Source: Promethearchaeota archaeon (GTDB lineage: Archaea > Asgardarchaeota > Lokiarchaeia > Sigyniarchaeales > SOKP01). From it: a stretch of DNA of 64,000 nucleotides. Below the pieces are notes generated by a model that saw only the letters and a program-made list of their open reading frames with translations, ran no database searches and was not told the origin of the DNA. The position numbers were made by a program, and so were the translations under genes. The first letter of the stretch is position 1. Each line of letters starts with the position of its first letter. The stretch lies in NCBI GenBank assembly GCA_048941285.1, contig JBHLNS010000008.1, forward strand, positions 1-64,000. Reading direction: 5' to 3'. Below are positions 45,811 through 50,547 of this stretch, one piece after another.

Positions 45811-46674
45811 TCAAATAGACTCCATCTGTTTTTTATAAAGAAAAAACGTGTTCTCACAAAGCATCGCAACGGTCATAGGACCTATACCTCCTGGAACAGG
45901 TGTAATTTTTCCGCACTTTTCAAAAACATCTTCAAAATCGATATCACCATATAATTTACCTGCAACTCTATTGATACTGACATCAACAAGAATGGCTCCA
46001 TCTTTAATTTTTTCTTTAGTTATGAAATTTGGTTTTCCAACGGCGACTATTAATATATCTGCTTTTTGGATATAATTGTTGATATTCTTCGTGGAAGTGT
46101 GACATATTGTAACGGTGGCATTTCTTTTCAACAACATAAAAATTAAAGGTTTGCCAACTAAATTTGAACGATTAATAATGACTACATCTTTACCTTTCAA
46201 CTCTATATTATTATTTTCTAATAATGAAATGATACCTTTTGGTGTGCAAGGTGCATGTTCTTCATTATAATCAAATAGTTTTCCTCTTGTAATAGGATTT
46301 AAACCATCTGCATCTTTTATTGGCAAGATTTTCTCTAAAAATTCAGGTGTATAATCTTTTAGATGTTCTGGAAGAGGTATTTGCAATAAAATTCCGTGAA
46401 TATTTGTATTTTTATTAAGCTTATCAATATCTTCTAAAAGTTCCTCCTTTGAAATTTGCTCATCTAACTCAATAATCATGGAATCAATGCCTACACTTTC
46501 ACATGTTCTTTTTTTAATGTTAACATAGACTTTAGATGCAGGATCTTTCCCTACAATTATAGTAGCTAGTTTTGGTCTAATACCGGTTTTTTCAACTGCC
46601 TTTTTAATTTGTTTTTTTAATTCTAAATTTAATTGTTCTGCTAATTTCGTTCCATCCAATATTTTATTATTCAT
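45811..46674 (-). CDS. folD: Bifunctional methylenetetrahydrofolate dehydrogenase/cyclohydrolase
   Basis: ILDG…VGKDPASKVY…HGILLQIPLP…PCTP…RSNLVGKP…TPVPGGIGPMT. Confidence 0.95.
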   Translation of the reverse strand: MNNKILDGTKLAEQLNLELKKQIKKAVEKTGIRPKLATIIVGKDPASKVYVNIKKRTCESVGIDSMIIELDEQISKEELLEDIDKLNKNTNIHGILLQIPLPEHLKDYTPEFLEKILPIKDADGLNPITRGKLFDYNEEHAPCTPKGIISLLENNNIELKGKDVVIINRSNLVGKPLIFMLLKRNATVTICHTSTKNINNYIQKADILIVAVGKPNFITKEKIKDGAILVDVSINRVAGKLYGDIDFEDVFEKCGKITPVPGGIGPMTVAMLCENTFFLYKKQMESI

Positions 46675-46762
46675 AGTATTTCTTGTTTATAATAAAATTC
46701 GAAAGTAAAAAAGGAATAATATTAATATCAAAATATAGTGTTTATTTAAAAAAATATAATAC

Positions 46763-47872
46763 TTAAATTCTTCTTCTTCTCCAAAGAAAAATAGCTATAG
46801 CGATAATTAATCCAATTGAACCTAAAACAATTCCTAAAATAAGGAAATTAAACTCAACCGTCCAGATCTCGTAAAGTAAACTAGATAATAAATTTAGTAT
46901 TTCTAAAGTTTTAAAAGCATAAAAACAAGAGACAACAGAAGAGATTTTTGGTTGAAATTCTCCAGTATTCTCGAAAAATCCGCCATCCTCGAAATTTTGG
47001 TGTTTTAATACCCATAATTGTATTTCACGATTATTTAAAATATTATTATCAATTATTGAAATTGCTTTTACACAATAATATGTACTACTTAATAATGCAT
47101 TTCCAGCTAATTCATTAGGAAGAAATCCTCCATAATTGTGTAAATCGGCAGAATTATTAACATAAAAAGACTTTAGATATGCTAATGTGCTATCAATATT
47201 AATTAAATCATGAATATCTCCAAACCTTTCATCATCTAGAATAAATACTGCAAAACTTGTATCAAGATATGTAGATAATGAGGTTTCATTCCCTCCATAT
47301 CCACCATCAGGATTATTGCATGAAAGAACCCAATTTTTATGAATTGATACATTTAAAATAGGTTGTTCTATTAGCGCGTAAATTTGTATGGCATAAAACG
47401 TTGAACTTATGGTTGGTAAACCAGTTGTGTTTGAAAAAGAAAAACCCCCACTTATTTGAGCAATATTATTTAGATAGTTATAAATTCTATTTGATAGACT
47501 TGAGTCAATGGTGTACTCTAATAGATTTAGTGAATTTAATAGATAATATAAGTTATATATATTTATTCGAGTACTATCAAACATGTCTTCAATTTTTCCT
47601 TCTAAATGAGTCTCTAAAGTGTCATCACTTTTGGGATTTCTTCCCAAATTATTTAATAAATACAAAGCATAAGCTGTTGCTTCAAAAGAAACTAAATCAC
47701 CACTAGGATCATCCATAATGGCATTGGAAAAGCCTCTTCCTTCAATTTCAGTATCTAATATAAAATCTGCTAAATATGATTGGCGTGTTTTTCCTAATAC
47801 GTTCGGAATTGTATTTACTGTGAAAAATAATATGAGCGTAATTATGATAAAATTCCGATATTTATATTTCAA
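46763..47872 (-). CDS. Prenyltransferase/squalene-cyclase repeat protein with signal peptide and C-terminal TM anchor
   Basis: Repeats GGFSF, NPDGGYGG, NYGGF, QNFEDGGF; hydrophobic N-terminus; C-terminal TM + WRRRRI. Confidence 0.8.
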   Translation of the reverse strand: MKYKYRNFIIITLILFFTVNTIPNVLGKTRQSYLADFILDTEIEGRGFSNAIMDDPSGDLVSFEATAYALYLLNNLGRNPKSDDTLETHLEGKIEDMFDSTRINIYNLYYLLNSLNLLEYTIDSSLSNRIYNYLNNIAQISGGFSFSNTTGLPTISSTFYAIQIYALIEQPILNVSIHKNWVLSCNNPDGGYGGNETSLSTYLDTSFAVFILDDERFGDIHDLINIDSTLAYLKSFYVNNSADLHNYGGFLPNELAGNALLSSTYYCVKAISIIDNNILNNREIQLWVLKHQNFEDGGFFENTGEFQPKISSVVSCFYAFKTLEILNLLSSLLYEIWTVEFNFLILGIVLGSIGLIIAIAIFLWRRRRI

Positions 47873-48029
47873 TTAAAAGTACCTGATTCTGATTGATTAA
47901 AATTTAATTTGTTAAATATATCTTGAAATTAAAAATTAACTATATGTTTAATGAACTTAAAGTGATATTTCAATTTTTTACTATTTATATAGAGTTATAA
48001 ATTAAAAAACTGATATTTTAAACATTTAG

Positions 48030-49550
48030 TTAAAGAATTTCACTAATATCTCTATATAATAATTCTCTATTAACTTGAAATTGATCATATGTGATAAAGA
48101 GTTTTCGAAAGGATCCTAAACTTCCAAGTATTGCCGCTCCATTAAAAATAGCATATTGAAGATTATCGGGTATAAAAAATTTGAGTACTTTGCTTGCTGA
48201 TTTAATCGATTCAGAGAATTCCTGGGCTGGTGATTTTTCTTTTAACTTTTTTGGTAGATTACTTGTCTCTAAAGTTTCTATTGGTTTTCCACAATATGGG
48301 CAAAATAGTGATTCTGAGTCAGGAAGATCCTTACTGCAATAGGGGCATTTTACTACTTTGATCTTTTGTTTACTATCATCTATTTCACCAATCTTAATCT
48401 CTGGTAAGACTAATACTCCTCCACATGAGGGACATACATTTTTTCCATCACTGAGATCTATAAATGCTCCACAGTGAGGGCAAGTATCCTCTTTCTTTTT
48501 TGAAATTTCAACGGCTTGGAGCTTGATTAGTTCGCTTTTAACAGCAGAAAGAGGTGTGACTGGTTTTGGAATAGATCCTAATTCAGGAAGTCCTAATTCT
48601 AACTCTGTTTCAAAGCGTTCTTGAAAGCCAGAATAGGAAAGATTGCCTCCTGAAAAAACTATATGAGATAAAAGATCATACCAATATAAACTATCTATAT
48701 TTCTCAAACTAGCGATAATCGCTTGAGGGATATTCATAACATTACTGTAACCTAGCATTGCAGGATTGAATAATACTTCCGGAGCTTGATAAAGAATGTA
48801 AGTTGGAACCTTTATTGTTGAACCATCAGGCATTGGAACACTAAACATATCTCCTGTCTTCATAGACTTATTGGCGTCTAAAACAAAATAACAATTCTTC
48901 TCTTTAATTTCTTGTAAAATTTCATCTGCGGCACTAGATGCGATACTAACACCTTCTCTCATTAAAAGGCTTTTTAAATTTTGATTTACATCAATTCCAG
49001 CAAGAGGAAGCTTCTGAACTGCATGTTGAACAATTGTCCCGTTTATTATTGGGGCAATCCAAGTTAAACCATCTCCCGATTCGATAACCATACCTGTTGT
49101 TAGACCAACACTAAATAAGGATAGTAGCGGTGTTGGCATCATTATCAGACTGTTAACTCGGTGGGTTTCAAAGAAAACTCTAGCAATGTATTCTTTTGTT
49201 TCTTTATGCATAAAAGGAGATTCGCAATAGAACACTGGATATTGAGAAAGATCTTCAATTCTAAGTAGTGAATAAAAAATGTAATTCAATATTTCATAAT
49301 AGCTATCCCAATCCATGATATTACCTCTTTCGATTGGATGTTTAATTTTTAGTACACCCCGCATTCGAGAAACATCATTTCCAACATATATACTACGAGC
49401 ACTTACATCAACCATAACAGATTTATATTTCTCAGTGCCAGTAATACAAGGAAACACAAATCTTGGTCCAGGTTCTCCTGCAAATCCGATTTTGACGTAT
49501 GCTGATCCCATATCAATTATGATAGGTGTTCCAGGTAAAGGCAGTGCCAT
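48030..49550 (-). CDS. Actin-related protein with double zinc-ribbon insertion
   Basis: IIIDMGS.YVKIGFAGE..PRFVFP, HPIERG.I.DWD, ESGDG, IKEK.CY, PDG, PEVLFNP, SGG, GAAILGSL; four CxxC inserted near the C-terminus. Confidence 0.92.
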   Translation of the reverse strand: MALPLPGTPIIIDMGSAYVKIGFAGEPGPRFVFPCITGTEKYKSVMVDVSARSIYVGNDVSRMRGVLKIKHPIERGNIMDWDSYYEILNYIFYSLLRIEDLSQYPVFYCESPFMHKETKEYIARVFFETHRVNSLIMMPTPLLSLFSVGLTTGMVIESGDGLTWIAPIINGTIVQHAVQKLPLAGIDVNQNLKSLLMREGVSIASSAADEILQEIKEKNCYFVLDANKSMKTGDMFSVPMPDGSTIKVPTYILYQAPEVLFNPAMLGYSNVMNIPQAIIASLRNIDSLYWYDLLSHIVFSGGNLSYSGFQERFETELELGLPELGSIPKPVTPLSAVKSELIKLQAVEISKKKEDTCPHCGAFIDLSDGKNVCPSCGGVLVLPEIKIGEIDDSKQKIKVVKCPYCSKDLPDSESLFCPYCGKPIETLETSNLPKKLKEKSPAQEFSESIKSASKVLKFFIPDNLQYAIFNGAAILGSLGSFRKLFITYDQFQVNRELLYRDISEIL

Positions 49551-49649
49551 TTTTTATCACTATTTTTTTTTTATTTTTTTTTTAATAATAATCTAAATTT
49601 ATGATTTTTATAATTACTTTATAGAATTTAAAAATAAGAATTCTTTTAA

Positions 49650-50075
49650 TTATTTTTTTATATATTTAAGCAGAGTTTTGAGGATCTCTTTTTGCATAAC
49701 TAATCCAATAAGTTCATTATTTTCATTTATAACAGGTAATCGTTGTACTTTTTTATTGAACATTATCTCTAAAACATAAATTAATGTGTCATTTTCTTTT
49801 ACAACGAAAGGTTCTGGAGTCATTAAGTCCTTGACAAGTGTATTAGGTGAGTCTAGACTCATCGCAAATCTTGCAAGACGTATATCTCTCTGTGTAATTA
49901 TTCCAATTAATTTCTTATCCTTGCGATCCTTAACAATTGGAAGGCCTCCAATATTTTTTCTAATCATTAATAGTTCAGTAGCACTAATTTTTTCATTTGG
50001 AAATGAATATAGCGGATCTTTTATCATTATCTCAGATACTTTTATATTACCTAATTTTTTTAAGCAATCTTCCAT
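49650..50075 (-). CDS. CBS-domain pair protein
   Basis: VSEIM…GGLPIV…LIGIITQRDI…VKDLMT…RLPVI…LIGLV. Confidence 0.9.
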   Translation of the reverse strand: MEDCLKKLGNIKVSEIMIKDPLYSFPNEKISATELLMIRKNIGGLPIVKDRKDKKLIGIITQRDIRLARFAMSLDSPNTLVKDLMTPEPFVVKENDTLIYVLEIMFNKKVQRLPVINENNELIGLVMQKEILKTLLKYIKK

Positions 50076-50166
50076 CTTAATACCCCAAATTCGACTTAAT
50101 TATTCAAAAATCTTTATTAGAAGTTTTTTATGGAAAGTAATCAATATGAAAATTAAAGTTTAATTA

Positions 50167-50547
50167 TCAGTTCCTACTTATTGATTCTCCTAAATTTTTC
50201 TCAATGATTATTAGCTGTTTTAGATATTCCTTATATATTTTTAAGAGGTATTCGCCCCAATTATTTAATTTAACCCAACCTCCTCCCCCGCGACCTCCTT
50301 TACCAGTTTTTACAACAGACATACCAGTTCTTTTTTCTATTCTTTTCAAAATATTCCATGCATATTTGTAAGAATAACCACATTCCTTAGCGGCTAAAGT
50401 GAGGGATCCATCTTCATTTTTTTCTATTCTGTCTAGCAATTCAGCCCATCCTGATCCTAAAATACTTTTATTATCAAATTCTAACCAAAATTTTATACCA
50501 AAACCTACTTTTGACTTTAAACTTTCAATATTGGATTGATTTTCCAT
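50167..50547 (-). CDS. ModE-type (LysR-like HTH) transcriptional regulator
   Basis: KFWLE…LGSG..ELL…GSLTLAAKECGYSYKYAW…GGRGGGG. Confidence 0.85.
   Translation of the reverse strand: MENQSNIESLKSKVGFGIKFWLEFDNKSILGSGWAELLDRIEKNEDGSLTLAAKECGYSYKYAWNILKRIEKRTGMSVVKTGKGGRGGGGWVKLNNWGEYLLKIYKEYLKQLIIIEKNLGESISRN

Follow-up and report, generated by a model that had tools for sequence, protein, structure and literature searches.

What might an actin that carries zinc ribbons do in an archaeal cell? The question is raised by a gene on contig JBHLNS010000008.1 (GCA_048941285.1) of a Promethearchaeota archaeon, of which a stretch of 64,000 nt, referred to below as the window, was analysed. The gene encodes a paralogue of actin, here called the zinc-ribbon actin, in which an insert with two predicted zinc ribbons interrupts an otherwise complete actin. 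This paralogue is real and strongly conserved. At a rough probability of 0.38, it is proposed to serve as a terminal, non-cycling subunit, either a cap or an anchor, on the barbed ends of Lokiactin filaments, with its ribbons offered to a partner.

The protein belongs to the actin family by its profile over the core. Pfam Actin (PF00022) matches aa 9-318 with an E-value of 4.1e-64 and 217.1 bits (cut-off 27), and covers profile positions 6-350 of 410. A phmmer comparison with the chains of the Protein Data Bank (PDB) aligned the protein with yeast actin (1yag_A) in two collinear stretches, in which residues 10-319 align with 8-319 and residues 452-492 with 323-363, and these identify the protein as a complete actin with a net insert of 129 aa at actin position 322/323. 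The initial annotation, which was made from the nucleotide sequence, had described a double zinc-ribbon insert of ~130 aa after aa ~322 and a resumption of the actin C-terminus behind it; both the phmmer alignment and the Pfam matches bear this out. Among the PDB sequences, 9wc4_A ('HC1 actin') scored best (1.9e-67), ahead of many eukaryotic actins at ~1e-63, and each of these matches is likewise split into two collinear parts. The start codon is right, because the N-terminus, MA[LI]PLPGTP, is conserved among the orthologues.

Within the insert, a linker with a low-confidence helix (333-345) leads to ribbon 1, and a further linker to ribbon 2, behind which a last linker returns to the core. 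Four CxxC pairs are present (C357/C360, C373/C376, C402/C405 and C417/C420), and their eight cysteines are invariant in 31 of the 31 close members aligned. Scores above the Pfam cut-offs were obtained for Zn_ribbon_3 (PF13248; aa 356-380, 46 bits against 27), DUF7575 (PF24460; aa 400-425, 33.3 against 28.5) and DZR (PF12773; aa 357-421, 28.5 against 27.3), and Zn_Ribbon_1 also matches at aa 400-425. With two CxxC pairs in each ribbon and these scores, the insert is a double zinc ribbon of the Cys4 type, for which zinc binding is predicted. The three modules PF12773, PF13248 and PF24460 are themselves generic, small and of varied function. Ribbon 1 occurs in 14 of the 14 orthologue loci read, including the distant ones, and ribbon 2 is missing from two of them (L005 and L009). 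In the tree described below, the L009 type forms the first branch of the zinc-ribbon clade and L005 is nested among two-ribbon forms, the latter position implying at least one loss of ribbon 2.

Over 50 sequences, ribbon 1 has a mean net charge of -2.4 and the whole insert is approximately neutral. Binding of nucleic acid or of anionic lipid by such an insert was considered and is thought unlikely, protein binding being the better fit. The 31-sequence alignment also revealed conserved non-cysteine residues on the surface of the ribbons, which together with the mild acidity suggest a specific protein partner. No close stand-alone relative of the insert was found in the same genome (best other match, E 1.2e-4), and the ESM Atlas gave no usable match bearing on its origin.

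The initial annotation named an assembly chimera as one finding that would overturn its view of the gene. That the open reading frame (ORF) is a chimera, a pseudogene or a chance frame now has a negligible probability. A word-indexed search returned 289 relatives; among the 120 listed, identity was 62-100% and nearly all were 498-510 aa long, and 120 of these 120 database clusters carry Actin together with at least one zinc-ribbon Pfam family. The full-length frame runs without stops in more than 120 genomes, the gene order around it is kept, and independent metagenome contigs span the junction between the insert and the C-terminal part (X1 record 3 and X5 record 27, 0 differences; X2 record 11, 7). 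With these junction-spanning contigs, the stop-free frames and the invariance of the eight cysteines, a chimera is excluded. In the alignment of 31 relatives, R75 is invariant, T140 is at least 90% conserved and the mean column identity is 77%.

Both of the latter residues lie at positions of importance in actin. In actin, Q137, H161 and H73 drive and sense ATP hydrolysis. Residue equivalences were hand-counted along the phmmer alignment to yeast actin. Actin D11, S14 and K18 correspond to D13, S16 and K20 of the window protein, while H73 is represented by R75, Q137 by T140, D154 by E157, H161 by W164 and K336 by Q465. The exchanges of Q137 and H161 had already been noted for this one protein, and a tally of 31 close and 10 distant sequences extends the replacement to the family. 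The Q137 position is T, S or A in 41 of 41 sequences (T or S in the close ones; S, A or T in the distant ones), the H73 position is R in 41 of 41, and the D154 position is E in 40 of 41 (all of the close sequences and nine of the distant ones, the tenth having D). W occupies the H161 position in 30 of the 31 close sequences, and the distant ones are variable there (T, F, Y, and H once).

The phosphate-binding loops are in a different state. All 41 sequences share D11, G13, K18, G156, G158, E214, G301 and G302, and K213 is K in 40 of them, so that the pattern of D11, G13 and K18, of D/E154-x-G156-x-G158 and of G301-G302 is present throughout, save for the change of D154 to E in 40 of 41. Judged by these residues, the family preserves the fold and the glycine loops without the hydrolysis machinery, and the zinc-ribbon actin would accordingly be expected to be non-hydrolysing. 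Two further positions separate the distant members. S14 is S in 30 of the 31 close sequences and E or Q in 10 of 10 distant ones, and D157 is D in 27 of the 31 close sequences and E, C, S or T in the distant ones. Since S14, the gamma-phosphate serine, gives way to an acidic or amide residue in every distant member, nucleotide chemistry is not what the family conserves, and nucleotide binding may have been lost in the distant orthologues (L005-L009 and P0122-P0127).

A structural model was predicted with AlphaFold2 from a 95-sequence alignment, another from a shallower family alignment, with a predicted local distance difference test (pLDDT) score of 55, having been discarded. The retained model has a pLDDT of 84.5 and a predicted template modelling score of 0.74, with values mostly >90 in the core and 77-85 in the ribbons. 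Of the solved structures, the conventional actin 4pl7_A resembles it most (Z 44.9; root-mean-square deviation 2.0 over 346 residues; 34% identity), and the model thus places the protein in the actin fold in three dimensions. Entries holding Arp4, Arp3, Arp8 or dynactin chains matched with Z 34-40 and identities of 17-26%, crenactin with Z 33.2 and 20%, and MreB with Z 27.5 and 17%.

Four actin-family genes were found in the same genome: a Lokiactin-like gene, the zinc-ribbon paralogue and two further paralogues. The Lokiactin-like gene (contig 26) scores 441 bits to Pfam Actin, retains Q137, H161 and H73 and has no insert; its product and the zinc-ribbon actin are 36% identical. Among these genes, Q137 and H161 are both kept in the Lokiactin-like one only. 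The two other paralogues, L002 (G000 contig 91) and L004 (G000 contig 66), have D/R and E/I at positions 137/161.

In a quick maximum-likelihood tree (LG+G4, 77 rows, with no labelled eukaryotic actin-related proteins, or Arps, included), all of the zinc-ribbon proteins fell into one clade, with a support of 100 in the Shimodaira-Hasegawa-like approximate likelihood ratio test (SH-aLRT) and a stem of 0.44, and the Lokiactin-like gene lay outside it. The sister position of this clade is weakly supported (86-89), and its stem of 0.44 is long. The proposal that the protein is distinct from Lokiactin therefore holds, with a separate Lokiactin-like gene in the genome and a clade of its own. By its sequence it is not a Lokiactin, as it is without the clade membership, the phylum-wide presence and the Q137, H161 and H73 of that protein. 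The label 'Arp-like' fared less well: it fits only if taken loosely, as a name for actin paralogues that have diverged, and the protein is nearer to actin (34%) than to the solved Arp entries (17-26%). It is best regarded as a divergent paralogue of actin that is specific to one Asgard order (Lokiarchaeia-type) and probably falls outside the eukaryotic Arp classes. Three distant representatives (P0128, P0129 and P0133) are proteins of 742-895 aa with two actin domains in tandem; they have no bearing on the present finding.

To survey the distribution of the gene, 400 genomes of the phylum were searched in six frames, with the complete protein as the query. Within the family of the source genome, an orthologue was found in 127 of 134 genomes, at full length, without stops and with E <1e-150; the seven genomes without one have completeness values of 61-100%. 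In the other families of the order, orthologues occur in 1/1 (second family), 10/14 (third) and 4/4 (fourth) genomes, with identities of 37-48% and frames of 489-566 aa. None was found in seven genomes from other orders of the class, where scores were at the Lokiactin level (~1e-61 to 1e-65), and none was seen in the rest of the phylum, where scores were no better than ~1e-74; six matches of this kind were listed, all of them limited to aa ~5-325 and located in frames of 375-413 aa. When the insert by itself served as the query, it was found in 128/134, 1/1, 7/14 and 1/4 genomes of the four families, among them three from the third family in which the search with the complete protein had found no orthologue. 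Outside the order, the insert query gave no match in the genomes from other orders of the class (0/7) and only weak ones (~1e-7) in the remaining phylum (5/239); of these five, the two that were listed fall in unrelated frames. By this genome-based tally the gene is confined to one order, although the data sources file close relatives under various names (Promethearchaeota, Lokiarchaeota and several more within the Asgard archaea). Lokiactin has the same fold and a similar D-loop, but Lokiactin-level matches are phylum-wide whereas the form with the insert is confined to a single order.

The position of the insert is of particular relevance to filament assembly. In F-actin, as described in the available text of PMC7247010, residues 322-325 of subdomain 3 touch residues 243-245 of the adjacent subunit, and the D-loop of one subunit touches Y143, R372, F375, L110, Y169, A170 and P172 of the next. 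The insert sits exactly at 322-325, one of three classical longitudinal contact sites, so the earlier placement of the insert-bearing loop near the barbed end was well founded. For the earlier statement that eukaryotic Arps accept insertions in this loop, a search of the literature yielded no usable support. In the available text of the IntAct paper, most internal tags, among them those at two subdomain 3 positions left unnamed there, are reported to have stopped incorporation into filaments.

The two faces of the core differ in what they conserve. The D-loop, KYKSVMVDV, aligns without gaps to RHQGIMVGM of yeast actin, and the plug region has a one-residue insertion relative to yeast actin; the D-loop-like (KSVMVDV) and hydrophobic-plug-like segments are kept, as had been pointed out from the sequence at the start. 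K39 is found in 40 of the 41 family sequences, Y40 in 41 and M44 in 37, which places the D-loop among the best-conserved segments of the protein, and EKYKSVMVDV is identical at 6 of 10 positions to PKYESIMTDV of the Lokiactin in the same genome. The receptor for the D-loop presents another picture. The Y169 position is Q, T, V or K and the P172 position Q, D, E or H, both being polar and among the most variable on the barbed face; A170 is replaced by I or M and I341 by N or K, and Lokiactin retains F169 and A170. With the loop conserved and its receptor not, docking into the groove of another protein is favoured over self-assembly.

These features can be joined in a simple scheme. Any nucleotide that is bound would be a static cofactor, possibly with none bound at all, and the zinc-ribbon actin would not treadmill; the absence of a need for nucleotide-driven turnover would fit the replacement of Q137, H161 and H73. 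The pointed-end face, chiefly the Lokiactin-like D-loop, would dock in the barbed-end groove of a Lokiactin subunit. The protein's own barbed face, with the insert at 322-325 and the altered, variable D-loop receptor (Y169, A170, P172 and I341), would be unable to take another subunit. The zinc-ribbon actin would then form the final subunit at the barbed end of Lokiactin, as cap or anchor, or would sit on a monomer, and its mildly acidic, sequence-conserved ribbons would be a docking module for a protein partner.

Several observations weigh against such an end-binding role. The asymmetry between the faces is modest when counted as identity to the Lokiactin of the same genome (15/31 pointed-face against 17/47 barbed-face positions), the PDG at 243-245 is kept in nearly all actin-fold sequences and is little informative, and the core of the barbed groove (F146, T151, L475, L478 and F481) is invariant in the close family, so that the groove is not destroyed. 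The distant family has a different D-loop, for example PKYQQ-MAGG, though Lokiactin is highly conserved, and one distant orthologue retains H161. The linkers of the insert have pLDDT values <50. Lastly, no RNA evidence for the gene was seen in the metatranscriptome X20, which over this gene gave only pieces of 34-50 nt with 3-5 differences each and had near-identical contigs in the neighbouring CBS gene alone; pieces of this kind count neither for nor against its expression.

Some of the same observations would suit a protein that forms filaments, or that copolymerises along Lokiactin filaments with the insert looping sideways and the ribbons decorating the surface to recruit partners. The retained D-loop, plug-like segment and hydrophobic groove core are in line with this, the long flexible linkers could let the insert move aside, and the high conservation of the whole core (62-90% identity among the 120 listed clusters, 77% mean column identity) points to many constrained surfaces. 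Such a role deserves consideration but is doubtful, given that the insert lies within the classical longitudinal contact of 322-325 with 243-245, that positions 169 and 172 of the D-loop receptor are the most variable on the barbed face, that the hydrolysis residues which dynamic actins need are replaced (Q137 and H73 in 41/41 sequences), and that S14 is E or Q in the distant clade. A scaffold outside filaments is unlikely. Here the protein would be a static, nucleotide-holding platform of the kind formed by nuclear Arp4 and Arp8 in chromatin remodellers, tied to other subunits by its ribbons. Some eukaryotic Arps likewise lose hydrolysis and sensor residues yet keep the phosphate loops, Arp4- and Arp8-holding entries are among the good structural matches (Z 34-40), and a small helix-turn-helix (HTH) gene is conserved upstream; the identity to the solved Arp entries is, however, only 17-26%, neither the ribbons nor the insert are basic, and the conserved, Lokiactin-like D-loop would be left unexplained. 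Improbable, finally, is a nucleator or monomer-binding regulator whose D-loop face binds a Lokiactin monomer in order to seed or sequester it, setting the sites where filaments start rather than acting on existing ends. It would draw on the same asymmetry of faces as capping, from which sequence alone cannot separate it, and eukaryotic proteins that bind barbed ends are able in vitro to nucleate growth from the pointed end, but nucleation with the fast-growing end blocked would be inefficient.

The proposed cap or anchor has partial parallels in known systems. Eukaryotic Arps (Arp1-Arp11) are likewise paralogues with the actin fold, in which the polymerisation faces and the nucleotide chemistry are altered and insertions are specific to the lineage. 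Arp11 caps the Arp1 filament of dynactin at its pointed end, and Arp4 and Arp8 are static scaffold subunits; the role of Arp11 thus differs from the barbed-end one proposed for the zinc-ribbon actin. No Arp is known to carry an insert of zinc ribbons. CapZ and the gelsolin-type barbed-end cappers would be analogous in the proposed function only, as an end block or tether, and their folds are unrelated.

A member of the same family is present in a cultured species. The 'ARP' UYP44711.1 of Ca. Lokiarchaeum ossiferum (Rodrigues-Oliveira et al. 2022, PMC9834061) can be equated with the orthologue at L005, as the published forward primer for its reverse transcription quantitative PCR (RT-qPCR) matches that ORF with 0 mismatches, and those for the other two ARPs find no match there. 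This orthologue is 38% identical to the window protein, has one ribbon rather than two and keeps H161. In the available text of PMC9834061, the three ARPs of L. ossiferum are placed among 'Asgard archaeal and eukaryotic ARPs', and RT-qPCR on all four homologues is reported to give severalfold the highest transcript level for Lokiactin. The low abundance of ARP transcripts fits weakly with an end-binding factor. As far as its main text was available, the paper contains no occurrence of 'zinc' and assigns the ARP no function, and a 2026 study of crawling motility refers, in its available text, to Lokiactin only. A search of the literature on Asgard and Lokiactin actin-related proteins with zinc ribbons or fingers found no description of such an insert. 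Whatever the fate of the capping proposal, an actin fold interrupted by a zinc-ribbon domain is undescribed as far as this search reached. The combination of altered hydrolysis residues, a Lokiactin-like D-loop and ribbons on the barbed face makes a concrete and testable candidate for an order-wide end-organising factor, and so for the control of filament ends in the closest relatives of eukaryotes; it would show actin paralogues becoming non-polymerising helpers independently of the eukaryotic Arps. The orthologue in a cultured species makes experiments feasible.

The features of the locus are given in Table 1, and the neighbourhood was compared across 15 loci.

Table 1. Positions in the window of the zinc-ribbon actin gene, its parts and its neighbours.
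Feature	Position	Strand	Basis or remark
Zinc-ribbon actin paralogue, whole gene	48030..49550	-	506 aa; stop codon 48030-48032
Actin core, N-terminal part (aa 1-322; subdomains 1, 2, 4 and most of 3)	48585..49550	-	Pfam Actin 9-318; equivalent to yeast actin 8-319; AlphaFold2 pLDDT mostly >90
Insert of 129 aa (aa 323-451) at actin loop 322/323	48198..48584	-	phmmer alignment, family alignment, AlphaFold2
Zinc ribbon 1 (C357, C360, C373, C376)	48423..48482	-	Pfam Zn_ribbon_3 356-380; pLDDT 77-85
Zinc ribbon 2 (C402, C405, C417, C420)	48291..48347	-	Pfam DUF7575 and Zn_Ribbon_1 400-425; optional in the family
Actin core, C-terminal part (aa 452-506; back to subdomains 3 and 1)	48033..48197	-	Equivalent to yeast actin 323-363; pLDDT ~93
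HTH-like protein, 126 aa, upstream neighbour	50167..50547	-	Pfam HTH_1 (LysR-type) 19.5 bits, below the 26.6 cut-off
CBS pair, between the HTH-like and actin genes	49650-50075	-	7/15 loci, own family only
Prenyltransferase-type alpha-alpha toroid protein, 369 aa, downstream	46763..47872	-	Pfam Prenyltrans 1.6e-15
FolD	45811-46674	-	11/15 loci

The block at 45811-50547 on the minus strand is kept across the order, even where identity falls to 38% for the actin paralogue and ~25% for the toroid protein. The HTH-like gene lies upstream and co-directional in 12 of the 15 loci, including those of the distant family, and the toroid gene directly downstream and co-directional in 13. In the four families of the order, 124/134, 1/1, 12/14 and 3/4 genomes have the toroid gene, as does one genome from the other orders of the class (1/7); it is single-copy in nearly all genomes that have it and adjoins the actin gene wherever coordinates were compared. 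Five genomes hold the actin gene without the toroid gene. Both genes are missing from six genomes of the own family (G147, G152, G165, G167, G232 and G272), of which one is 100% and one 92% complete; either loss of the locus or an unassembled region is possible, and as the genes are adjacent, their joint absence is no independent evidence of a link.

Any functional link between the toroid protein and the actin paralogue is putative. The toroid protein has hydrophobic segments at its N- and C-terminal ends and a tail ending in WRRRRI, and is predicted to be membrane-anchored. Direct contact with the actin is doubtful, because most of the protein is predicted to lie outside the cell, with a cytoplasmic tail of six residues. 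A wider role, in which the zinc-ribbon actin caps Lokiactin barbed ends and ties them to a membrane-associated assembly, perhaps with the toroid protein, and so positions filament ends in protrusions of Loki-type Asgard cells, is unlikely in this full form. If true, it would be an archaeal, actin-derived answer to the task of the eukaryotic capping protein, formins and Arp complexes.

An operon of the actin paralogue with the toroid gene was considered and set aside. T-tracts are found 3' of the actin stop codon, and the intergenic stretch before the toroid gene (window 47890-47945) contains a motif of ~50 nt, with the core GTTAATTTTTAATTTCAAG on the minus strand; these T-tracts and the conserved motif make separate transcription of the toroid gene likely. 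The motif is kept in the relatives L011-L014 and L017, occurs once in the genome and is probably a promoter or operator. Rfam gave no match in the intergenic stretch and one chance-level match elsewhere, and the depth of metagenome contigs peaks over the bin of the motif (288 in X1). For the CBS-pair gene, near-identical contigs were observed in an RNA library (X20 records 22 and 23; 0-1 differences), although such libraries can contain DNA.

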